Notes: a model not told the origin generated them from the letters alone. DNA of 26,878 nt from a virus (IMGVR_UViG_3300048856_000029:88846-115723); one strand, 5' to 3'; shown: positions 3,074-26,526, counted from the stretch's first letter. Program-made: numbers and translations.

Positions 3074-3312
3074 CCCAGGAAGAACGAGAGGCAGCAGTTG
3101 CCAAGCTCGAGGATCGGCTCGCCGGACTCTTTGCACGTCTTAAGGTTTTCACCGAAGCCGAGCAGCGCAATGGCTACGCAACCAAAGAGAGCGTCGCTCT
3201 ACAAGCCTACTACCGCGAGCAGATCTACGCCACCGACGTCGAAATCGACGCACTCGCCTGTCCAGTGATCTACACCCCGGGAACCGACGGCGACCTCCCG
3301 ACGGACATCTAA
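3070..3312 (+). CDS. hypothetical protein
   Basis: GTGA start/stop overlap with the upstream ORF. Confidence 0.6.
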   Translation: MTQEEREAAVAKLEDRLAGLFARLKVFTEAEQRNGYATKESVALQAYYREQIYATDVEIDALACPVIYTPGTDGDLPTDI

Positions 3313-3470
3313 GCCCACCCCGGCACCAAGTCCGGCCGGCTTACAGCGACAAAGATCAGGAAGGGTGACAACCGGCAGACGATCACGAGCAGGGCAAGGA
3401 TCGACACGCTGAAGCGGCCATGGGCCTCTCCACTGATCTTGCGACTACTGAACTTCAGGTGATTCTTCAT
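3309..3470 (-). CDS. small membrane protein
   Basis: GGAG RBS before ATG at 3470; hydrophobic stretch FSVSILALLVIVCRLSPFLIFVAV. Confidence 0.5.
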   Translation of the reverse strand: MKNHLKFSSRKISGEAHGRFSVSILALLVIVCRLSPFLIFVAVSRPDLVPGWA

Positions 3471-3830
3471 TCGTGGCTCCAGGCGAGAGATTCGCTGGCA
3501 CCACACTGGCTATAAGCCTACCCTCCGGGCCGGGCGTCAATGAAGAAAACGGTGCTACTCACGGAGTCGTTTCCAACTCGCCCTTTTTGAACGAGATAGG
3601 GGATAACTTTCCCTCATTAGCTGCACAAGCCGAGACCGCAACCAACCCGCACCAAGCCCCAGGACCGGTCCAAGCTTGCCCAGGCACCCTGAGTCGTCAA
3701 GATAGCCTTGCCGGTTCTTGACAACCTTCCTTGCCTCGGCTGTTCACGCACCATCTCCAGATGATGAGTCCTTAACCAGTTCTTTCCCAAAAGTTTACAC
3801 CCAAGCCACTCTCCCAGATTTTCACCCTCC

Positions 3831-4022
3831 GTAAAGAACGAAATCGCTAATTAACGCAATCGCTAAAACTATCGTAAAAGCGCACAGAACAGCTCCAGCG
3901 ACAAAAGCGATCACAGAGACAGCAAACACTCAGGAAACGCATCACAGCAAAACGTCGCAAGAAACAACAAGCGCTCCAGCGTCATCTCACGAAACGCAAG
4001 CACAGCAGCGCTTGATAGATAT
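3831..4022. other. A-rich, GG/CC-depleted non-coding patch starting with a TCGCTAA array
   Basis: Only 3 GG/CC in about 190 bp; strong A/C strand skew; no ORF. Confidence 0.7.
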
Positions 4023-4610
4023 CCCGAGCACTGACCCATAAAGAGCACCAAAGCTCACCCCGGCTCATCGACCACCGGAGAGCTAGACAGACACCTACAG
4101 GCTCAAGAGAGCACCAACAGCTATAGAAGCATGTGTAGACCATAGAGAGGGAAGAGAGCTGTCGATAGGTCTGATAGACGCGAGAGACTGTAGAGGTAGT
4201 GAGGGTTCCGCGCCATCATCCTCCCCTCTCCCACACCAGCACCCCGAGCTACCCACCCCGAGACGGCAAATTTCGACTGCCGGCCTTTTCCCGCTTCTAA
4301 CCCAAGATCGGGTCACTTAGCGTCTACAAGGTCTCGATGATGAGACACAGCGTTAAGGTCGATAGGAGTTTGACATGCCCTCAGACCGAAATGACTTAGA
4401 GGCGGTTCGCTCGACGGGGCGTATCGCCTCTCTTTTTGGCTAAACGGATAAACCAGGAACCAGGCGCGTCCGCTCCCTAGACCGGGGAATGTGGGTGATC
4501 CATCGAGGTGACACCCGTGCCGGAGATCCTTCATCCTCGCCGGACCATGGACGATCCATGGATAAGCCGCGGACCCTCCATGGCGAGCCGGAACCTTGTC
4601 GATCCGAGGA

Positions 4611-4694
4611 CACAATCCGGTCCGTGCTCAGTCAATTATTACTTATTCCTAAGAGTATTATATATATATATGACTGACGACGGCAAAAATTGTG
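4611..4694. repeat. ~85-bp imperfect palindromic element, copy A (inverted homolog at 18096-18183)
   Basis: CACAATCCGGTCC..TCAGTCAATTATTACTTATT..(TA)n..TGACTGACGACGG..ATTGTG; aligns with the reverse complement of 18096-18183. Confidence 0.8.
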
Positions 4695-4902
4695 ACAGGA
4701 TTGTGGCACGCTCCGGCACGTAAGAGTCCTTGACTTCCCTGTCATCTCTCCTCGGCTTGTCCATGGCGCCCGCCAGCGGCTCCCTGGCACGCAATCGTGC
4801 CAGCCCTGCGCCATTTTCTATCCTGAAATCAAAGCGTTAGTGTCTAAACATCGAAAGCGAAACGACGCTTTCGACAGTCAACAACGCTCACAGGAGAGAC
4901 AC

Positions 4903-5589
4903 ATGACCAAGTCCAAGAACGTCCAGGCACCCGCAGGCCAAGGCAAGCTCGAAGAATACGCCTTCAAGACCGCTGCCGGCCGCTACACCACCCAGCAGGT
5001 GATGGAATACGCGGCCAAGGTGAAGGCAGCCTTCGACGACCGCATCAAGTTCGAAATCACCTCCTCACCGTCCGGCTCGGCGAACCTGCCGATCGTGGAG
5101 AAGCTCAACAAGCGCCTCGAGACGATCAGCCTGCCCGACGTCACCCGTGGCCTGATGGAGCTCGGCGCCGACCCCAACTTCATCAACCACACAATGAGCA
5201 AGGATGGGAACGGCGCACGCTTCAACATCTACGCCATCGACAAGGCGATCAAGCTGGTGAAGTTCCTGATGTCGACCGACAAGGTGCCGGCTGTTCTCTT
5301 CGCCTGCCTCAAGTCGATGATCAACTTCAAGGCGGCCGGCGAGACGTTCACCAGGGAATTCGCTGAAGCCGCCGTCTGCGACAAGATCCGCCTTGAGCCC
5401 TCTGCCGGCGCCAAGCTGCTCATGCGCCACACCGTCGACAAGTCGACCGCCTCGACGCAGACCAGCTCCAATATGCGCGTGCTGGCAAGCCTGGGGCTCA
5501 TCAAGGTCAACGGCTCTGCTCGGGCCGCTTCCTACGAGTTTGCAGATACGGACCAGGCGAAGTATCTGCAGAAGCTCGTCGCTGCCTAG
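4903..5589 (+). CDS. 228-aa protein, paralog of 7091-7660; possible C-terminal winged helix
   Basis: AGGAG RBS and ATG at 4903; phage-typical codon usage; NMRVLASLGLIKV..SYEF resembles a wHTH helix plus wing. Confidence 0.85.
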   Translation: MTKSKNVQAPAGQGKLEEYAFKTAAGRYTTQQVMEYAAKVKAAFDDRIKFEITSSPSGSANLPIVEKLNKRLETISLPDVTRGLMELGADPNFINHTMSKDGNGARFNIYAIDKAIKLVKFLMSTDKVPAVLFACLKSMINFKAAGETFTREFAEAAVCDKIRLEPSAGAKLLMRHTVDKSTASTQTSSNMRVLASLGLIKVNGSARAASYEFADTDQAKYLQKLVAA

Positions 5590-5616
5590 TCTCGCCGGAT
5601 AAGCAGCGACCTGGTG

Positions 5617-5652
5617 GAAGGGGAGAGGACGTGTGGAGCCTCTCCCCTTCTT
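5617..5652 (+). terminator. hairpin, probable terminator
   Basis: GAAGGGGAGAGG-N10-CCTCTCCCCTTC-TT just after the stop codon. Confidence 0.6.
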
Positions 5653-5905
5653 GCCCTGCCTGACCGATCCATGGCTTCACCATAAACCGGTGGGGTCCAT
5701 GGGACCGGTGGCCGGGGAACCAAGCGTGAGCACGCCATGGGTCGGGGAAGGCTTGGGTGTCGGTCCAGCCATGGACAGGCCAAGGTGTCGCCGCGTCCAG
5801 GCCGTGGCCTCCCTGCCCCACTCGGCGCCAGCATCTCACCTCCCGCAATCCTTCTGGGCAATTGCGATGATTAGTCATCGACAAGCGAACGAGAGGATTT
5901 CTCAA

Positions 5906-6196
5906 ATGGACGTCCACTTCAACACCGGCCGACTCTACACCGCTGCAGGCCAAGTCATTCGTGCCGTCTGGGACAAAGAGAACGAGGTGATCCACTTCGC
6001 CGACTTCTCTCGTGCGTGCAATGGCTCGATCGACGCGCCCGAGTGGATGATCAACTTCACCACGCCGGGCGGGCTCGCCAGGTTCGTGATGGAGCACTAC
6101 GACCGGCACGCCTACAAGAGCACCCCGCAGTCCTGGGAGCTCCTTATGGTGAAGGGCCGGGATAGCCAGGCCCAGGTTCATCACTTCGGCATGTGA
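5906..6196 (+). CDS. hypothetical early phage protein (96 aa)
   Basis: GAGAGGA RBS and ATG 5906 (MDVHFNTGRLYTAAGQVI); the upstream extension in the ORF track looks non-coding. Confidence 0.75.
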   Translation: MDVHFNTGRLYTAAGQVIRAVWDKENEVIHFADFSRACNGSIDAPEWMINFTTPGGLARFVMEHYDRHAYKSTPQSWELLMVKGRDSQAQVHHFGM

Positions 6197-6279
6197 GCGG
6201 CGACAAGCGACTACCAGTTTCGCTAATTCGCTATTTCGCTATTATGCTATTGTCAGCAACGAGACGAAGAGGTTCTCAC

Positions 6280-6468
6280 ATGACCATGATCCCTGCCCCC
6301 AAGCGCGTCATCCGCCTCGAGCCCATGGCGCCCATGCGTCCACTCGCCGGCCTGAAAGAGCCGTTGATCCAGACCACCAAGGACAGCTTCGCGTTCATCG
6401 CCTTCATATCGTTCGTGGCCCTGGTTGCTGCGATCGCCAGCATGGTCTCGTTCCAACCACCCGTCTGA
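6280..6468 (+). CDS. small single-pass membrane protein
   Basis: GAGG RBS and ATG 6280; C-terminal TM segment FAFIAFISFVALVAAIASMV. Confidence 0.7.
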   Translation: MTMIPAPKRVIRLEPMAPMRPLAGLKEPLIQTTKDSFAFIAFISFVALVAAIASMVSFQPPV

Positions 6469-6493
6469 GAGGAGGTGATCCATATCTCGCGTT

Positions 6494-6522
6494 AGCCGGC
6501 CCAGAGCCGGCTTTCGTCGTTT
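6494..6522 (+). terminator. probable intrinsic terminator
   Basis: AGCCGGC-CCAGA-GCCGGCT followed by TTCGTCGTTT. Confidence 0.5.
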
Positions 6523-6762
6523 CAGGGGTAGCCATGACTGAGGTAGCGGGGTTTTCAGGAACCGGTGGGCTCTGGGAGCCGGGGAATGGCACTGCGTCCA
6601 TTCCCCTTTGTAGCCGTGGGTGTGTGATCCGCATCCGAGGATGCGCCTCGGCTGGAACGACTCTAGGCCCATCCATGGTCAGTGGCCACCCTAAAATCCA
6701 GGAACCAACCACTTTCGCCCCTGGTGTCGCCATCCCTCGCCGGCTCCCGATCCAGCTCCACA

Positions 6763-6796
6763 GTCGCTGCGGCTCGTCGCTGCGGCTCGTCGATGC
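6763..6796. repeat. 13-bp tandem repeat, about 2.6 copies
   Basis: GTCGCTGCGGCTC GTCGCTGCGGCTC GTCGATGC at the left edge of the GG/CC-free zone. Confidence 0.8.
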
Positions 6797-6800
6797 ACGC

Positions 6801-6824
6801 AAAAGAGCGCGCTTTCGCGCGCTC
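6801..6824 (-). terminator. intrinsic terminator of the GG/CC-free operon
   Basis: Minus strand GAGCGCGC-GAAA-GCGCGCTC-TTTT (GNRA loop); stem built without GG/CC. Confidence 0.75.
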
Positions 6825-6843
6825 CTCTGTCTAAGTTGTATCG

Positions 6844-7020
6844 CTATTCTGCGTGTCGTTCGTCGCGCTTGTAGCTCACTAGAGACGCGATATCGACGCT
6901 ATCGAAATCGTCGTCTAGCAATTCGACGTCAACGCGCAATGCGTTGATGTTATTCATTAGCTGTTGCTCACGAAAGCGCTCGCGCTCGCGACGTTCTTTC
7001 TTGCTCAAGTGAATGCGCAT
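6844..7020 (-). CDS. 58-aa protein with basic N-half and acidic C-half; lacks Gly/Pro/Trp
   Basis: ATG at 7020 with TAAGAGA RBS; lies between the 189-aa gene and the terminator. Confidence 0.6.
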   Translation of the reverse strand: MRIHLSKKERRERERFREQQLMNNINALRVDVELLDDDFDSVDIASLVSYKRDERHAE

Positions 7021-7049
7021 GTTCAAATCTCTTATTCGACGTTGAGAGA

Positions 7050-7074
7050 GACTAGCGCGACGAGCGCGCTAGTC
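7050..7074. other. perfect 10-bp-stem hairpin between the two GG/CC-free genes
   Basis: GACTAGCGCG-ACGAG-CGCGCTAGTC. Confidence 0.75.
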
Positions 7075-7090
7075 ATTCAATTTTGACTTA

Positions 7091-7660
7091 TCACGCAAAG
7101 CGCGCAACGATCGCTTGAACAATCTCGTTATCGTTGATTGCGTAAGTATCGCGCGACAACTGAGAGACGACGTTGATAGCAGCGAGCGCGCGCATGTTCA
7201 TCGTTGCATGACGCTTTGCAGACGAATAAGCAGTCTTGCGACGATAATAGAGATGAACGCGCTCTTTCGCGACTTTCAAGTCTTTGTTGAGCGCAATCTC
7301 GAAATCAGAAAGACGAATGTTCTTTTCATCGTTCTTCTTGAAGTTCGCGAGCGTGCGAATGCACTCTTCGACACATGACTTAAGATCTTCGATCTTCTTT
7401 TGATCGATCACGAATGAGAGCACGTCAGCGACGTTTTCGAGCGCTTTCATGTCGAACTTGTCGTCTGCTTGTTTCTTGTCATGCGCAAAGTCTGCGACGA
7501 CTTCGCAGCGTTCAAGCAGATCAGCGACTTTCTGTTGAGAAACGACCAGAGTGCACTTCTTGATGAAGTTCAGCGAAGCGCTCGACTTGTCGTTCTTCAG
7601 TTCTTCATCGTAGCGAGCAGACAGCGATGCAGCATACTTGTTGAGCGTTACGTTCGTCAT
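7091..7660 (-). CDS. 189-aa protein without Gly/Pro/Trp; paralog of 4903-5589
   Basis: Long ORF with AAAGAGAG RBS; colinear motifs shared with 4903-5589 (YAA, SASL/SANL, NFK, NMRxLA). Confidence 0.85.
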   Translation of the reverse strand: MTNVTLNKYAASLSARYDEELKNDKSSASLNFIKKCTLVVSQQKVADLLERCEVVADFAHDKKQADDKFDMKALENVADVLSFVIDQKKIEDLKSCVEECIRTLANFKKNDEKNIRLSDFEIALNKDLKVAKERVHLYYRRKTAYSSAKRHATMNMRALAAINVVSQLSRDTYAINDNEIVQAIVARFA

Positions 7661-7721
7661 GTTAGTCTCTCTTTCTCTCTTTGTTGTGAAGCGTTGTTGC
7701 TTCGTCGTGTTGACAATGATG

Positions 7722-7749
7722 AATATACAGATTGATTTGATAGTTGCAA
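7722..7749 (-). promoter_or_regulatory. putative sigma70-like promoter of the GG/CC-free operon
   Basis: Minus strand TTGCAA-N16-TATATT about 60 bp upstream of ATG 7660; TCGCTAA array immediately upstream. Confidence 0.55.
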
Positions 7750-8148
7750 TAGCTATTTCGCTAAATCGCTAACTTTTTTATGGAGATCGGGATTCGCTTA
7801 TAGAACGTCACAGACGCGCATAGACGCTTGAGCAGTGTCTCACAGCGCAGAGTGCTCGGGATCGACTGTGTGACGCGCTGTGTGTCGAAGCGCGCGCAAT
7901 CGAACGTGCAAGCGACAGTGTGAAGCGAGATAGTTGCGATGAAAGCGAAGTCTTAGAAAAATCGTGGGTAGCTGAAGGGGATGCCTTCTGGCGCCGGAGC
8001 ACTTCCGGAATGGGACTACCTCTCCTAGCGCCCTATCAGGACGGACAGCTCTCTACACGCCGGTCGGTAAAGATCGGTCAAGCTCTCCTCTGCCCCCCCG
8101 CAGCCCGGTATCCTGGCGCCCTGACTACCTATCCTGCGCCTCAGCTAA

Positions 8149-8166
8149 TCATTCAGTATTGACTTA
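8149..8166. promoter_or_regulatory. 18-bp palindromic operator
   Basis: TCATTCAGTATTGACTTA; consensus T(C/A)AGT(C/A)A-N4-T(G/T)ACT(G/T)A. Confidence 0.7.
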
Positions 8167-8182
8167 TCGTGAAGCGCCTTCT

Positions 8183-8797
8183 ATGGTTCCTGCCATCATC
8201 CATACGGAGCTTTCCCCTATGAACACCTTTCCCCAGGGCATCCTCGCCTCTTCCGACGGCCGCATGATCGTCGATCTCGAAAACGGTCGCATCCTCATCA
8301 CCGATCCGCCTGCAGATCCGGCCGCTGACTTCGAGGAATACTACGAATACGAGGTGCCGGCCGCGCTGTCGGTTCTCCTGGTCGACGGCAAGACGGTTTC
8401 GATGGAAGACGTCGCTGCAGTCGGCGAGAAGGACGGTCGCCTCTATATCGTTCATGCCAATGGCGCTGTGACCCACCTCTCCTACCCGTTCATCTCCTGG
8501 ACCGCTGTCGATACCTTCGCGGAGCCGGACGTCGATCGGGGCGATGTCACCGAAGATGCCGCTTGCGACTGTGAGGTCTGCAACCAGGAGCCGGAGCTCG
8601 ATCGCGAGGCGCTTGATGGCCTGAAGGCGAAGATCCGCGCCGAGAACGAACAGCGTGCTGCCGTGAAGCAGGCTGTCAACGAGGAGCCGCAGGTCGTCAA
8701 CGTGACCATGAACGTCGCCGCCCCGGTCGCCGAGACCGTGCAGCGGATGGTGCAGGAAGCCCTGCGCAACGCCGTCCGCATGGGTCACTTTCGCTAA
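8183..8797 (+). CDS. acidic hypothetical protein with CxCxxC
   Basis: Long ORF with phage codon usage; start uncertain (8183 or 8219). Confidence 0.75.
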   Translation: MVPAIIHTELSPMNTFPQGILASSDGRMIVDLENGRILITDPPADPAADFEEYYEYEVPAALSVLLVDGKTVSMEDVAAVGEKDGRLYIVHANGAVTHLSYPFISWTAVDTFAEPDVDRGDVTEDAACDCEVCNQEPELDREALDGLKAKIRAENEQRAAVKQAVNEEPQVVNVTMNVAAPVAETVQRMVQEALRNAVRMGHFR

Positions 8798-8826
8798 TTC
8801 GTTAATCCGCTAAAGGACGAAATCCG

Positions 8827-9069
8827 ATGCACGATGGTCTGCCCGTCAAGGGCTACAAGCCGCAGAACCAGGAGAAGATTGACCTGGTCAACGCCAACAA
8901 GGAGCTCGAGGAGCGTTGTCTGCGCCAGGCAGAACGGATCAAGGCTGATCCGAACTACGACGGCCGGATGGCCGCCCTCGCCTTCACCCATATCCAGGAC
9001 GCCTTCATGTGGCTGAACCGCGCCGTCTTCCAGCCGGCCCGCGTCTCGCTGCCGGAGGACAGCCGTTGA
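8827..9069 (+). CDS. Acb2/Tad1-fold cyclic-nucleotide sponge-like anti-defence protein
   Basis: VKGYKPQNQEKIDLVNANKE and RMAALAFTHIQDAFMWLNRAVFQP parallel the recalled Acb2 pattern (IKGYRxLSQEEID..N..KE / RW.AI..T..Q...M...RA.AQP). Confidence 0.75.
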   Translation: MHDGLPVKGYKPQNQEKIDLVNANKELEERCLRQAERIKADPNYDGRMAALAFTHIQDAFMWLNRAVFQPARVSLPEDSR

Positions 9070-13751: not shown

Positions 13752-14501
13752 ATGACATATCCTCAACCCCTGATGCTGGACCCGCGGGCGCTTTCGCCGA
13801 ATCCGTGGAACACCAACATCGTCACCCCGGAAAACGAGCGAAAGCTCGAGGAGTCCATCAAGCGACTTGGGTTCTTTCGTCCGGTCATAGTTCGCGAAAT
13901 CGCTAATTCGGGAATTAGCGATATCACATATCAGCTTCTGGGCGGCGAGCATAGAGCGCAGGCTGCAGTTCGCCTGAAGATTTCGAAGATCCCGGTCGTT
14001 AACCTTGGCCCGATCAGCGACCTGGAAGCCAAGGAGATCGGGATTGCCGACAATGCCCGATACGGCGTCGACGATCAGATCGCCTTTGCCGAGCTGGTCA
14101 AGGACATGGGCAATGCCGATCAACTCGAAACCTTCCTTCCTTATGCCGAGAGTGACTTCGCTGACCTCTTCGCATCTGCTGAAATAGATCTGGATGCTTT
14201 GGCGCTCGACGAGGATTTCGAGCGGAAAGAGGACAAAGCCGAGGACGACGAATCGGCTCAGCCGAAAGCGCCCAAGACCCACACGATCATCCGCTTCAAG
14301 GTCACGAACCGCGACGCCGAGGATCTCACCCGGCTGATCGAAGCGACCAAGCAGGGGCAGGGGTTCACCTTATCCGACGAGCTGACCAATGCGGGCGACG
14401 CCCTGGTCCATCTGCTGCTCAACAACAAGCCGGCCGCTGCCGGCGAAGACGATGATCTTCCCGAACTGGAAGACCTCGCCATCGACGGGGACGACGCATG
14501 A
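13752..14501 (+). CDS. ParB/Srx N-terminal domain protein 1
   Basis: LSPNPWNTN, LEESIKRLGFFRPVIVR, GGEHRAQAA, ADNARYG. Confidence 0.88.
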   Translation: MTYPQPLMLDPRALSPNPWNTNIVTPENERKLEESIKRLGFFRPVIVREIANSGISDITYQLLGGEHRAQAAVRLKISKIPVVNLGPISDLEAKEIGIADNARYGVDDQIAFAELVKDMGNADQLETFLPYAESDFADLFASAEIDLDALALDEDFERKEDKAEDDESAQPKAPKTHTIIRFKVTNRDAEDLTRLIEATKQGQGFTLSDELTNAGDALVHLLLNNKPAAAGEDDDLPELEDLAIDGDDA

Positions 14502-14677
14502 TCACCCCGAAGTTCGATGACTGCCGCTCCTGCGTCTTCTTCCTCAAAAATCGCCGCAACCCGATCTGCAAGAGCTGCGATGCGGGCGAGTTCTACGAGG
14601 AGAAGCACACCTGCCGGGAGAAGACCAACGACGAACTGATGAAGCTCTACGGGGAATATACCGATGACGACGAATAG
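14498..14677 (+). CDS. 59-aa Cys-rich protein (CxxC-N11-CxxC), not in the ORF track
   Basis: ATGA overlap; MITPKFDDCRSCVFFLKNRRNPICKSCDAGEFYEEK... Confidence 0.75.
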   Translation: MITPKFDDCRSCVFFLKNRRNPICKSCDAGEFYEEKHTCREKTNDELMKLYGEYTDDDE

Positions 14678-15335
14678 GCCGGTCCAACTGCTCGATATCG
14701 AGCAGATCAAGCCCTACGAGAACAACGCCAAGAAGCACTCGGCCGAACAGGTCGGCAGCCTGGTGAAGCTGATCGAACGCTTCGGCTGGACGCAACCGAT
14801 CGTCACCGACCGCGACTTCGTGATCATCGCCGGTCACGGCCGGCGCCTGGCAGCCCTTGAGATGGGGCTCAAGAAGGTGCCCGTCATCGTCCGCGAGGAT
14901 CTGACCAAGGACGAGGCCAACGCTCTCCGGCTCGCCGACAATCGCGTCTCCTCGACCGAATACGACCTGGCGCTCGAACAGGCGGAGCTGCAGGCGCTCT
15001 CCATGGTCGATCTCAACTTCGACCTCACCGATCTCGGCTATTCCGAGCATGAGCTGAACTTCTCGACCGCCGATCTTGGCGAGCTGGATGACTCCATCTT
15101 TGTCGACGACATCAACGGCGCGGTCGAAAAGCAGAAGAACGAGAACAAGGAAAAGGTCGAAGAGGTCGACGATGTCGCCGCGCCTGTCGTCGATGCGCTC
15201 GGCTTCAAACGTGTGACGATCGCCGAAAGCCGCGTGCTGCGCGACCTGATGGCCCGCATGGAAGTCGCGACCGGCAAGAAGGGCGCTCCGGCGCTGATCG
15301 ACTTCGTCTCCTCCAGACTGGAAAAGGCCGCATGA
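14664..15335 (+). CDS. ParB/Srx N-terminal domain protein 2
   Basis: IKPYENNAKKH, FGWTQPIV, IIAGHGRRLAA, LRLADNR. Confidence 0.9.
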   Translation: MTTNRPVQLLDIEQIKPYENNAKKHSAEQVGSLVKLIERFGWTQPIVTDRDFVIIAGHGRRLAALEMGLKKVPVIVREDLTKDEANALRLADNRVSSTEYDLALEQAELQALSMVDLNFDLTDLGYSEHELNFSTADLGELDDSIFVDDINGAVEKQKNENKEKVEEVDDVAAPVVDALGFKRVTIAESRVLRDLMARMEVATGKKGAPALIDFVSSRLEKAA

Positions 15336-15757
15336 TCGAGATCGAGGCACAGAACGTCATCGATCTGAAGTCGCGCAAGCCCTACCGGCTGGTGCGCGAG
15401 GAGCAGATCAAGGCTCGGCGCAAGGCCAAGCGCCAGGCAAAGAAGGAACTCGATGAAGGGCGCGCCGAATACCGCGAGGCGATTTTGTCGTCTCTGCGCC
15501 AGATCACGAAACTCGTCGAGGAGGGCAAGCTGCATGGCCTGATCCTGCTTGCGCAGGAGCCCAAGTCGAAACTCTTCCTGACCGACGTGGTCCTGGATGA
15601 ACGGTTTGTGCCGGCACAGGATCTGTTCGCCTTCGTCGGCTGCCTCGAGGCTCTGAAGCTGGAGCTGTCGGATGCCTCGACGATGGCGCCGGTGCTCGGT
15701 CTCGACGGCTCGGTCATCGATCCGGAAGTCAACTACATCGAGGATTACGAGGAATGA
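15332..15757 (+). CDS. hypothetical protein
   Basis: Translationally coupled at both ends. Confidence 0.75.
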   Translation: MIEIEAQNVIDLKSRKPYRLVREEQIKARRKAKRQAKKELDEGRAEYREAILSSLRQITKLVEEGKLHGLILLAQEPKSKLFLTDVVLDERFVPAQDLFAFVGCLEALKLELSDASTMAPVLGLDGSVIDPEVNYIEDYEE

Positions 15758-16398
15758 GCGTCTACACGATCAACAAGGCGTTTACGTCGTCCGTCGAGCG
15801 CACGCCGCGGGTGCTGGAGATCGCCGAGGGTTTTGGCCTGGGACTGACCGACAAGAGGTTCGTCGTCTATGACAACCTTCAGCTCGAGGTGAAGCAGGGC
15901 GATATCGTCTATATCCTCGGCCAGTCGGGCTCGGGCAAGTCGCTGCTGCTGCGCGACCTGGTCTCGCAGATGCGCGGGGAGGGGAGGGCGGTCGCCGACC
16001 TCAACGAACTGGTGCTGCCGGACGTGCCGGTGATTGACTGTCTCGGCACCACGACCACCGAGGCCACCAATCTGCTTGCCAAGGCCGGCATCTCCGACGC
16101 CTGGATCTATATCCGCAAGCCCTCCGAGCTTTCCGACGGCCAGCGCTATCGCCTGAAACTGGCGATGATGCTCGGCATGAACGCTGATGTCTGGGCGGCC
16201 GACGAGTTCGGAGCCGTGCTCGATCGCACCACTGCGAAGATCATCGCCTTCAATCTGCAGAAAGTCGCCCGAGAGAACGGCAAGACCCTGATCGTTGCGA
16301 CAACTCATTCCGACCTCGAGGAAGAACTGGGACCGACGCTGTCGATCCACAAGCGGTTCCGCGAAAAGGTCGACATCAAGGAAGGGCTGGCGGCATGA
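15754..16398 (+). CDS. stand-alone ABC-type ATPase
   Basis: GQSGSGKS, LSDGQ signature, ADEF Walker B, TTH H-loop; no permease nearby. Confidence 0.9.
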   Translation: MSVYTINKAFTSSVERTPRVLEIAEGFGLGLTDKRFVVYDNLQLEVKQGDIVYILGQSGSGKSLLLRDLVSQMRGEGRAVADLNELVLPDVPVIDCLGTTTTEATNLLAKAGISDAWIYIRKPSELSDGQRYRLKLAMMLGMNADVWAADEFGAVLDRTTAKIIAFNLQKVARENGKTLIVATTHSDLEEELGPTLSIHKRFREKVDIKEGLAA

Positions 16399-16694
16399 AT
16401 TTCGGTAAGGCACTCGAATTCGCCAAGAAGGGCAAGGTCATCCGTCGGGCGGAGTGGAATGCGAAGGCAAAGGTCTACCTGGAAGCCGGATCGCGCGACA
16501 CCTCCAAGCTTTATGGCCGCACCCGGATCGAGGCTGCACTCAGAGCCGAACTGTTCCAGCCCGGCGACAAGGGCACCGTCACCCGGCTGCCGAACCTCAA
16601 CCTGAAAACGCCGGGCGGCGAGACGCTGACCGGCTGGCAACCCTCACAGCTCGAAATGCTGGCAGAAGATTGGGAGATCATTTCCGATGAGTAA
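16395..16694 (+). CDS. DUF2829/Tad2-like protein
   Basis: MNFGKALEFAKKGKVIRRAEWN ... GWQPSQLEMLAEDWEII matches the family termini. Confidence 0.82.
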   Translation: MNFGKALEFAKKGKVIRRAEWNAKAKVYLEAGSRDTSKLYGRTRIEAALRAELFQPGDKGTVTRLPNLNLKTPGGETLTGWQPSQLEMLAEDWEIISDE

Positions 16695-16884
16695 GACCAC
16701 GACCTATCGCACGACCCGCGACATCGTCATTCCGGCCGGCACCGAAGTCGGCCCGGCGCCGCGGCGCACCGATTACATCTCCCGCCACAGCGAGATCCTG
16801 ATCGGCTTCGACAAGGACACGACCGGCAACCTGCGCTTCGACACCGAGGAGGCGCTTCAGCTCGGTCTGATCGAGGAAGTTTGA
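16687..16884 (+). CDS. hypothetical protein
   Basis: GGAG RBS; coupled to neighbours. Confidence 0.65.
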   Translation: MSKTTTYRTTRDIVIPAGTEVGPAPRRTDYISRHSEILIGFDKDTTGNLRFDTEEALQLGLIEEV

Positions 16885-16997
16885 TGCGGCTGAAATCGCT
16901 AATTCTTGCTTTCGCTATTTCGCTGCTGGTGAGCACTTGCAGCGCGACAGCACCTGCACTCGCAAAACTCGACGGAGCGCGCTGTGAGCGAAACTGA
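16884..16997 (+). CDS. possible 37-aa signal-peptide-like ORF
   Basis: TGATG overlap, GAGGA RBS; MRLKSLILAFAISLLVSTCSATAPALAKLDGARCERN. Confidence 0.4.
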   Translation: MRLKSLILAFAISLLVSTCSATAPALAKLDGARCERN

Positions 16998-17850
16998 GAC
17001 GATTGTGACGCGATCTGACAGCGCACGAGCACGTTTCTCGCTGGCCGACGACATGTTCATCGAACGGGGCACGATCGAAGACTGGAACCTGCTGCACGAT
17101 CTCCACTACAAGGCGGAGAAGCTGCCGCTTGGACCGCGCTTCTGGCGTCTGGATCTGCATGGCGAGACGATCGGCGTCCTGGTGACGGGCACGCCGAAGG
17201 GTATGCTGCGCGAGCGGCACCTGGCCTTTCCGAAGCTGAAGCCGACCGGCCAGGAGACCAAGCTCACCAACACCAACCGCTATCACTACATCAACGCCAA
17301 CTTCCGGGTGATCTCGAGGTTCGTGATCGACACGATGTATCGCGGCATCGGCGCCGGCTACCGGATGATGAACCTGGTCTCCCGCATGGAGGGCAACACC
17401 TTCATGGAGATCCAGTCGTCCATGTCGAAGTTCAACATCTTCGGCCAGAAGGCAGGCTTCAAGTTCGTCAAGCCGATGAACGCCAACAAATACGAGCAGG
17501 GGATGAAGTTCTTCCGCTCGCATTTCCAGGCCACGCCCCAGGACTTCGAGGCGATCGTCAACGAGATTGAGGGCTCGCCGGCACGCGAGAGACTGATCCA
17601 GGCCTGCCGGGAGTTCTACCAGCGCAACTCGGCGCTCGAGAATACAGGTGCTGCCCGTGAAAAGGCCGACGAGCGCGTCGCGGCCATGACCACCCGTGGC
17701 CTGGTCAAAGGCATTCAGCAGGTCTGCCTGGCCTCGCCCATGTATGGCGTCTGGAAGTGCCCGGACAAGAAGGGCAGCGTGCCGGAGCGAATGCCGTTGC
17801 TTGCTTTCGATGCGCAGGGCACGTCCGAACCTCTGAGGTGGAAGGCCTGA
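16984..17850 (+). CDS. GNAT-fold acyltransferase, Mom-like candidate DNA-modifying enzyme
   Basis: LHYK near the N-terminus; ISRFVIDTMYRGIGAG acyl-CoA-binding motif; SSMSKFN. Confidence 0.75.
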   Translation: MSETETIVTRSDSARARFSLADDMFIERGTIEDWNLLHDLHYKAEKLPLGPRFWRLDLHGETIGVLVTGTPKGMLRERHLAFPKLKPTGQETKLTNTNRYHYINANFRVISRFVIDTMYRGIGAGYRMMNLVSRMEGNTFMEIQSSMSKFNIFGQKAGFKFVKPMNANKYEQGMKFFRSHFQATPQDFEAIVNEIEGSPARERLIQACREFYQRNSALENTGAAREKADERVAAMTTRGLVKGIQQVCLASPMYGVWKCPDKKGSVPERMPLLAFDAQGTSEPLRWKA

Positions 17851-25759: not shown

Positions 25760-26526
25760 TCAGCAATCATCTGACTGTCCGCGCGATGGAAGCCAACCAG
25801 CGCTACCTGGCCTTCACCGACCGGCTGCGCGGCTTCTATCATTCATCGCTGACGGCCCACGACTTCGGCTCACCGGCCTTTCTGAACCGCATCTCCCAGG
25901 AGGCCGAAACGGCCTCTTTGTGGTTTCTGCGCGAAGAGTGGCAGCACATTCAGTCCTTCACGCAGGAAATCGCTGAGATTGCGCGCAGAGCGACGTTGAG
26001 CGAAATCGAGAGTATCGACGCGCGAGAGCTGACGGACGAAGCCCTCGAGCATGTGAGCGCGTCTTGCGACTATCTTTATTCAGAGATTGTCGCTCAGGTC
26101 TCGCGTGACACGACGACGCTCAAAAGAACGCTGCAACGGGTCAATCTGGAAGTGTCGATCGCCTCGCGCTCGCGTGGCTCCTCACGCCGTTCTGCGCTGA
26201 TGGAATACATGATTGGCAACAAGGCCGACATCGACTTCGCCTTCCACGACCGCGCATCCCGCAAATGGAAGTCCTCTGCCTTCGTGCGCTCAGTCTGGCG
26301 CCACACGCTCCTGTCGATCTACAACGAGATCGTCCTCTTCACGCTCGCCGAGCACGGCCTGCGCACAGCCGAGATCCATTCCGACAATGATGACGCCAAT
26401 CACCGCGGGATGATCATCGCGCTGTCCTCGAACGGCGAGCTGCCGACCTATTCCGAGATCCGCGAGCAGATCTTCCATCCCAACGCCAACAGCTACCTCA
26501 AGAAGACGGAGACCGCTGATGTTTAG
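25756..26526 (+). CDS. putative head morphogenesis/minor head protein
   Basis: Coupled ORF; C-terminal FHPN resembles Mu gpF-like HPN motifs. Confidence 0.6.
   Translation: MISNHLTVRAMEANQRYLAFTDRLRGFYHSSLTAHDFGSPAFLNRISQEAETASLWFLREEWQHIQSFTQEIAEIARRATLSEIESIDARELTDEALEHVSASCDYLYSEIVAQVSRDTTTLKRTLQRVNLEVSIASRSRGSSRRSALMEYMIGNKADIDFAFHDRASRKWKSSAFVRSVWRHTLLSIYNEIVLFTLAEHGLRTAEIHSDNDDANHRGMIIALSSNGELPTYSEIREQIFHPNANSYLKKTETADV

Follow-up and report, generated by a model that had tools for sequence, protein, structure and literature searches.

A GG/CC-free island in an RHEph10-like phage-plasmid and a paralog pair of which one copy lacks glycine and proline

The stretch analysed here (IMGVR_UViG_3300048856_000029:88846-115723; 26,878 nucleotides, hereafter the window) is the last 26.9 kb of one 115.7-kb viral contig with a terminal overlap. 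Two open reading frames (ORFs) in it face each other, at the coordinates that an earlier note, made from the sequence alone, had given. They encode paralogous proteins, one of which contains no glycine or proline and is encoded in an island almost free of the dinucleotide steps GG and CC. The features of the locus are as follows, with lengths of proteins in amino acids (aa).

4903..5589, plus strand: normally coded paralog, 228 aa, with a helical N-terminal domain and a predicted C-terminal winged helix; 12 Gly and 7 Pro; 100 GG/CC steps
7091..7660, minus strand: purged paralog, 189 aa; free of Gly, Pro and Trp; 1 GG/CC step; under purifying selection
6785..7965: GG/CC-free island, 1181 bp; 7 GG/CC steps versus about 160 at the genome rate
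6844..7026, minus strand: 60-aa ORF, the second island gene; no Gly, Pro or Trp; 0 GG/CC versus 14 expected
7050..7074: terminator-like hairpin between the two island genes, made of CG/GC steps only
7722..7749, minus strand: sigma-70-like promoter match for the island genes (TTGCAA-16-TATATT; a consensus match only)
7946..7985, plus strand: boundary element of the island, GAAGTCTTAGA (found once in the genome) and then GGGGATGCC; a candidate site for packaging or a terminus
4823..4892, plus strand: GG/CC-free promoter-leader that precedes the normal paralog and stops at its GGAG ribosome-binding site
4628..4645: 18-bp palindromic operator, of which the genome has 45 copies
7073..7090: another copy of this operator, immediately behind the stop codon of the 189-aa gene

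A paralog pair and a GG/CC-free island

BLASTP aligned 171 aa of the two proteins at 22% identity (E 4e-6). A comparison of their families by HHalign gave 94% probability (E 1.3e-7, 180 columns) and paired all six segments that the earlier note had aligned by eye, so its claim of colinear paralogy holds. The contrast in composition was also found as described, 12 Gly and 7 Pro in the 228-aa protein versus 0 Gly and 0 Pro in the 189-aa protein. Trp had been counted in the contrast as well, but both copies, including the 228-aa protein, contain 0 Trp, and therefore only Gly and Pro are informative. At the Gly/Pro/Trp frequency of this phage (12.7%), the probability that 189 aa contain none of the three by chance is ~7e-12. 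It had further been proposed that Gly was replaced by Asn or Asp. In the pair itself this is seldom the case, as just 3 of the 12 Gly of the 228-aa protein align to Asn or Asp and many lie in deleted loops, but the substitution is seen at the family level, where Asn or Asp was found in 28/36 purged sequences at three conserved Gly columns. The Gly of the wing is 97% conserved in normal copies and is deleted in 10 of 12 purged ones.

Gly (GGN), Pro (CCN) and Trp (TGG) have codons that cannot avoid GG or CC, and the 189-aa protein has no Gly and Pro because its gene sits in the GG/CC-free island. When this protein was recoded with the codon usage of the phage, the gene contained a mean of 52 GG/CC steps and never fewer than 34 in 2000 trials, whereas the real gene contains 1. 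Therefore, the constraint acts on DNA, and the suggestion that the protein was reshaped by it is supported. The gene of the 228-aa paralog has 100 GG/CC versus 97 expected from recoding. Nowhere else does the genome have a stretch of this kind, and none of the other dinucleotides shows a gap that is comparable for its frequency. It extends beyond the 189-aa ORF; both strands, the hairpin, the ribosome-binding site (spelled GAGAG, without GG), the second ORF and untranslated DNA upstream of the promoter are likewise purged. The island has ~48% G+C, with CG and GC strongly enriched. Five of its seven GG/CC exceptions lie in the upstream spacer, and the island genes are purged more fully. Between relatives, synonymous sites are near saturation, yet GG/CC remains at 0-4 per purged gene, and thus the purge is ongoing. 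Because dN/dS of the 189-aa gene is 0.10-0.38 across six genomes, which indicates purifying selection, the gene is very likely translated. The near-ban on GG/CC in the island points to an undescribed activity that reads the GG/CC step of DNA.

One of the exceptions, a GGG at window position 7858, recurs ~80-100 bp from the boundary motif in three relatives (L001, L008, L013), and this recurrence suggests a binding site that requires GGG. TCGCTAA repeats were also observed at window positions 3844, 3860, 6220, 7758 and 7766; two of these lie close upstream of the island promoter.

The guess that the paralogs are winged-helix proteins is supported for the C-terminal domain, which is predicted to be a winged helix by modelling and structural matches. 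The model of the 189-aa protein (pLDDT 91) contains a three-helix bundle and a beta wing. Its residues ~77-189 aligned to many winged helices (Z 6-7.7), which made up most of the top 50 structural matches, with Z up to 7.7, rmsd 2.6 and 79 aligned residues; among winged-helix DNA-binding domains (MarR/ArsR/Fur, Cdc6/ORC, kleisin WH) no single match was outstanding for this protein. In Pfam, PHROG and NCBIfam, no family was above threshold for either paralog, and no named winged helix-turn-helix family (MarR, ArsR, Fur, RepA) was among the matches. Foldseek against the PDB gave no significant match. Atlas models of both proteins match one unnamed 207-aa cluster (TM 0.69 and 0.65), and the 228-aa model matches an unnamed 188-aa viral protein (E 1.5e-9, 22% identity). 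For the helical N-terminal domain and for the architecture as a whole, only unnamed clusters matched. The two models built in this analysis used common alignment rows and are not independent of each other.

Outside the island, 24 of the 36 longest GG/CC-free gaps stop immediately ahead of a start codon; one of these gaps is the normal paralog's leader. The 18-bp palindromic operator (core AGTCA-N4-TGACT), whose 45 genome copies compare with 0 in shuffles, is found in the window at 4628, 7073, 8149, 11822, 13704, 18112, 18149, 18198, 20188, 22893, 22956 and 23918. The paralog pair are candidates to bind either this operator or the boundary motif. A good sigma-70 match at 4657-4686 on the minus strand, with an operator just downstream, is directed towards a gene-poor stretch (3700-4600). 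GG/CC-free patches of 54-69 bp were also observed within coding DNA at 16974-17043 and 25965-26097, one of them at the start of a GNAT-like gene; such patches are possible internal promoters. Rfam gave no match at 3300-9000.

Relatives and the boundary motif

By gene order and protein matches, the genome groups with Rhizobium phage RHEph10 and is an RHEph10-like phage-plasmid; a Shinella plasmid is a deposited close relative. The ~110-kb genome, a helicase, a ParB-ParB-ABC-GNAT module, terminase, portal, a capsid block and ParA place it among the SSU5-related phage-plasmids. The relatives of RHEph10 include the Sinorhizobium plasmid-prophage pLM21S1 and, at a greater distance, the AB and SSU5 phage-plasmid groups (PMC7969092, PMC4447125). 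A pattern of the restriction-site-avoidance type was seen genome-wide, with GTAC at 0.09 of expected and ATGCAT, CAGCTG and GCATGC also strongly avoided.

A profile search revealed 348 members of the paralog family. Their Gly+Pro+Trp counts are bimodal; among 169 members, 18 have 0-3 and 151 have 9-28. One HMM detects two copies in 11 of 12 related IMG/VR genomes, and the twelfth contig stops inside its island. In the 11 IMG/VR genomes and B1VFA, GG/CC density is 0-10 per kb in the purged copy, which is free of Gly, Pro and Trp, and 106-176 per kb in the normal copy. A purged and a normal copy are also present in RHEph10, where the purged one has one Gly, and in the Shinella plasmid. For the RHEph10 island (L001:15258-15938), the RefSeq annotation is an antisense ORF (gp097), and the conserved gene lies on the opposite strand. 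In the best-sampled tree, purged and normal copies fall on opposite sides of nearly one branch. This topology fits a single old duplication as the source of the pair. A first tree nested the purged protein P0158 among normal copies, as independent repeated purging would; the AU test did not reject a single purged clade (p 0.25), the better-sampled tree placed P0158 beside the normal clade, and we do not conclude that purging was repeated. A tblastn hint of a third paralog, at genome position 27300, was rejected, since the hit overlies the DnaB helicase gene and is missed by the family HMM.

Island-position genes of more distant phages, SSU5 and those of Xanthomonadales, retain Gly and match the paralog family weakly. 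Because they keep Gly, we infer that the loss of Gly in the purged copy is the derived state. An Acinetobacter phage-plasmid has an island with a clear family homolog (E 6e-11). Pseudomonas phage nickie has a 1.1-kb island that holds a Gly/Pro/Trp-free gene (gp019), for which homology to the paralog family was undetectable. No second family copy was detected in nickie or SSU5, and thus the pair appears to be confined to the alphaproteobacterial branch and the island to be wider.

The islands, 0.7-1.8 kb long, share one edge, GAAGTCYTAGA, in 19 of 22 genomes. This motif is conserved in Rhizobium phages, nickie, Acinetobacter, Xanthomonadales and enterobacterial phage-plasmids. The side of the motif on which the island lies never changes, whereas the island gene is directed away from the motif in 13 cases and towards it in 5. 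The far edge is often within 50-150 bp of the stop codon, island length varies with gene content, and purged DNA reaches past the promoter or terminator through the spacer to the motif. Since the island is anchored on the motif with its gene in either orientation, the constraint follows a site in addition to a transcription unit.

In enterobacterial phage-plasmids, the same motif is found with an island at the same place, but the banned context is narrower. The eight words A/C/G-GG-C/G/T are observed 16 times versus 252 expected in five enterobacterial islands, where TGGN, NGGA and GGGC are tolerated. This context was read from SSU5 and then held in the four others, which are related and not independent. 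Because the banned GG context is narrower there, the island protein keeps Gly. Xanthomonadales relatives purge only patches of 130-250 bp, at the promoter and next to the motif, and the gene that they retain in the interval is Gly-rich.

L004:42359-43394, L020:10890-12022, L091:3879-4567, L092:3907-4690, L093:3778-4308: enterobacterial islands with the narrower ban
L017:27181-27355, L018:15185-15439 and 16272-16406: Xanthomonadales purged patches

Lysogen expression data were found for one enterobacterial relative, Cyrano; no infection transcriptome was found. In an E. coli LF82 Cyrano lysogen, expression is at background for the island gene CYRAN_113, for the small gene beside it and for the ParB-ABC-GNAT module, the putative repressor CYRAN_45 is 10-fold above background, and CYRAN_113 rises in macrophages at 6 h (PMC9928086 S1 Table). 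Such a pattern suits a gene of the lytic phase better than a maintenance repressor. CYRAN_113 is 86% identical to SSU5_120 and a weak homolog of the paralog family (HHalign 23%, E 9e-4); its link to the Rhizobium family consists of synteny, the boundary motif and this weak profile match, and it does not bear on the normal copy.

What may read the GG/CC step

The following module of the window is a candidate writer of a GG/CC modification.

13752..17850, plus strand: two ParB-fold genes, a stand-alone ABC ATPase gene and a gene weakly similar to GNAT, located upstream of the terminase genes

We favour, with a probability of roughly 45%, the reading that the phage's own ParB-ParB-ABC-GNAT module modifies GG/CC and that the DNA beside a probable genome end stays unmodified and is used first. 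In this scheme, the lytic module would modify the GG/CC steps of progeny DNA once it is replicated, just as Mom of phage Mu modifies adenines, and the single-copy motif would mark the packaged genome end. The modification may hinder host RNA polymerase or end-processing enzymes; the first-used segment would therefore carry no target sites, and outside the island only promoter-leaders would be cleared of GG/CC. The earlier note had imagined a pioneer copy expressed from incoming DNA and a second copy used later. Accommodated to the present scheme, the purged copy would be the DNA-binding protein that is made first in infection, whereas the normal copy, keeping its full Gly-containing wing, would be used once unmodified DNA exists; the data are compatible with such a pioneer role. 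The ParB-ABC-GNAT module was found in every lineage examined, and its GNAT-like gene is on 967 plasmid records. A narrower context at the same place in enterobacteria is what is expected of an enzyme with lineage-specific specificity. Nican01, a relative of nickie, has fixed ends with long direct terminal repeats by PhageTerm, with coordinates unpublished (PMC11256456).

Several points weigh against self-modification. The GNAT assignment is weak (Pfam Acetyltransf_10 at E 0.037), and the protein gave no significant match to solved structures, by sequence, or to curated families. Co-occurrence of module and island reflects shared descent and is not independent evidence, and Xanthomonadales relatives retain the module, yet purge short patches only and have Gly-rich genes there. 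Depletion at promoters is modest after base-composition control, with one of six flanks clearly significant; GG/CC in the 15 bp before operators is 43 versus 71, and the other flanks are weak. Known modified phage DNAs are generally transcribed through, and the clearing of a whole coding sequence is left unexplained. No modified base is reported for these phages in the searchable papers, and no terminus coordinates for relatives were found in the literature searched, so the motif is a candidate end only.

The same synonymous purge and motif anchoring would also be expected if a nuclease or DNA-damaging factor, either a host defence or a phage enzyme directed at unprotected DNA, acts at GG/CC. 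The segment that enters first, or an end segment that cannot be protected, would then be site-free, and its product or a modification would protect the rest. In T7-like and T5-like phages, a site-free first-injected region suffices for escape (PMC12455610, PMC10644984), and the continuation of purged spacer beyond promoter or terminator to the motif agrees with this account. However, it needs a single host factor across alpha- and gammaproteobacteria, a host nuclease does not predict the genome-wide clearing of promoter-leaders, and the pair matched none of the defence or anti-defence families of Pfam, PHROGs and NCBIfam. We regard it as improbable, though it is the strongest of the rivals. 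We give still less credit to local mutation or DNA physics, in which CC/GG decays by damage in an end segment repeatedly exposed as single-stranded, resected or bent DNA, or in which GG/CC steps impair ejection, melting or end recombination and a reader protein is unnecessary. The anchoring of the island on a site would suit either form. For mutation, G-to-A transitions convert Gly to Asp or Asn, and dS is ~1.2 in the island gene versus 0.75 in the paralog (one pair). The G+C content and the CG and GC enrichment described above argue against it, as does the extreme mutation pressure needed to remove a Gly conserved at 97%. Furthermore, the far edge often lies close to the stop codon and the length varies with gene content, and the tolerance of GGA/TCC and TGG/CCA in enterobacterial islands agrees better with a reader than with bulk physics. 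UV damage, for which TCC is a mutable context, and Ssp phosphorothioation at CCA are disfavoured, given that these islands accept TCC and CCA.

Avoidance of CRISPR protospacer-adjacent motifs (PAMs) around an anti-CRISPR-like early operon would be consistent with complete islands in Pseudomonas phage nickie and in Acinetobacter, since GG/CC is the type I-F PAM (CC) on one strand and the Cas9 PAM (NGG) on the other. The narrower enterobacterial motif matches no PAM known to us, the promoter-only clearing elsewhere is unexplained and the trait is strongest in rhizobial phages, which makes this cause very unlikely. Equally hard to credit, and disfavoured, is a cause at the level of RNA or protein, such as an RNase site, mRNA structure, shortage of Gly/Pro tRNA or EF-P, or selection on the protein. 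The full purging of the genes beside a slightly leaky upstream spacer (5/7 exceptions) would suit it, but GG and CC are both missing from the same strand, codon junctions and synonymous codons included, DNA upstream of the promoter is purged, and hairpins persist, made from CG/GC.

Self-modification can be extended to the whole SSU5-related superfamily, which would then write an undescribed GG/CC modification (in the narrower context in enterobacteria) and keep a modification-free boot segment at the genome end; this segment would encode a Gly/Pro-free winged-helix protein, and the unconstrained paralog would take over later. We consider this extension tentative and rather doubtful.

Significance and comparison with known systems

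The pair is a natural controlled experiment, in which a single genome has one fold in a form that contains Gly and Pro and in a form that lacks them, repeated across genomes, and it reveals that a DNA-level rule can strip two amino acids from a working protein. It predicts a GG/CC-reading activity; a candidate module and a candidate end site can be named for it, its motif is specific to the lineage, and the cultured phages RHEph10, nickie and SSU5 make all of this testable. If the modification is real, it would be a new base chemistry that bears on the restriction resistance of a very common group of phage-plasmids. If the superfamily extension is right, hundreds of clinical phage-plasmids would be included, with a life-cycle switch encoded by dinucleotide content.

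The genome size, gene order and gene set given above are common to SSU5-related phage-plasmids (RHEph10, pLM21S1), and the two paralogs are 60% and 44% identical to RHEph10 proteins. The searched text of the RHEph10 and pLM21S1 papers (PMC7969092, PMC4447125) does not mention the island or the paralog pair. No paper on a dinucleotide-free island or an island-split paralog pair was found in the literature searched, whose scope leaves out most subscription journals. Avoidance of longer restriction sites in first-injected DNA, and phage DNA modification linked to GNAT and ParB, are already known.

Mom is the GNAT-fold DNA modifier of phage Mu (PMC7261163). The candidate module resembles it in its weak GNAT signature and in adjoining terminase genes, whereas Mom acts on adenine, and ParB-fold and ABC ATPase genes accompany the GNAT-like gene here. 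No site-free island in Mu is known to us. ParB folds act as activators of post-replicative DNA modifiers in phages, and the ParB-dependent phage T-dioxygenases share with the present module a ParB-fold partner, sequence-specific post-replicative modification, which here would be of GG/CC, and a frequent location near terminases (PMC13229309). The present module is without a dioxygenase and, unlike the T-dioxygenases, its target would be G or C.

The island itself is most like the first-injected regions of T7-like (Murciavirus) and T5-like (BF23) phages, where a short, position-defined segment is without a motif common elsewhere (PMC12455610, PMC10644984). The likeness includes a likely end segment with early genes, the end position being a candidate here. 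In those phages the motifs have ≥6 bases and proteins are not reshaped by their loss; here the motif is a dinucleotide, missing from both strands, its absence has removed two amino acids from a protein, and the trait is kept across phages of alpha- and gammaproteobacteria.

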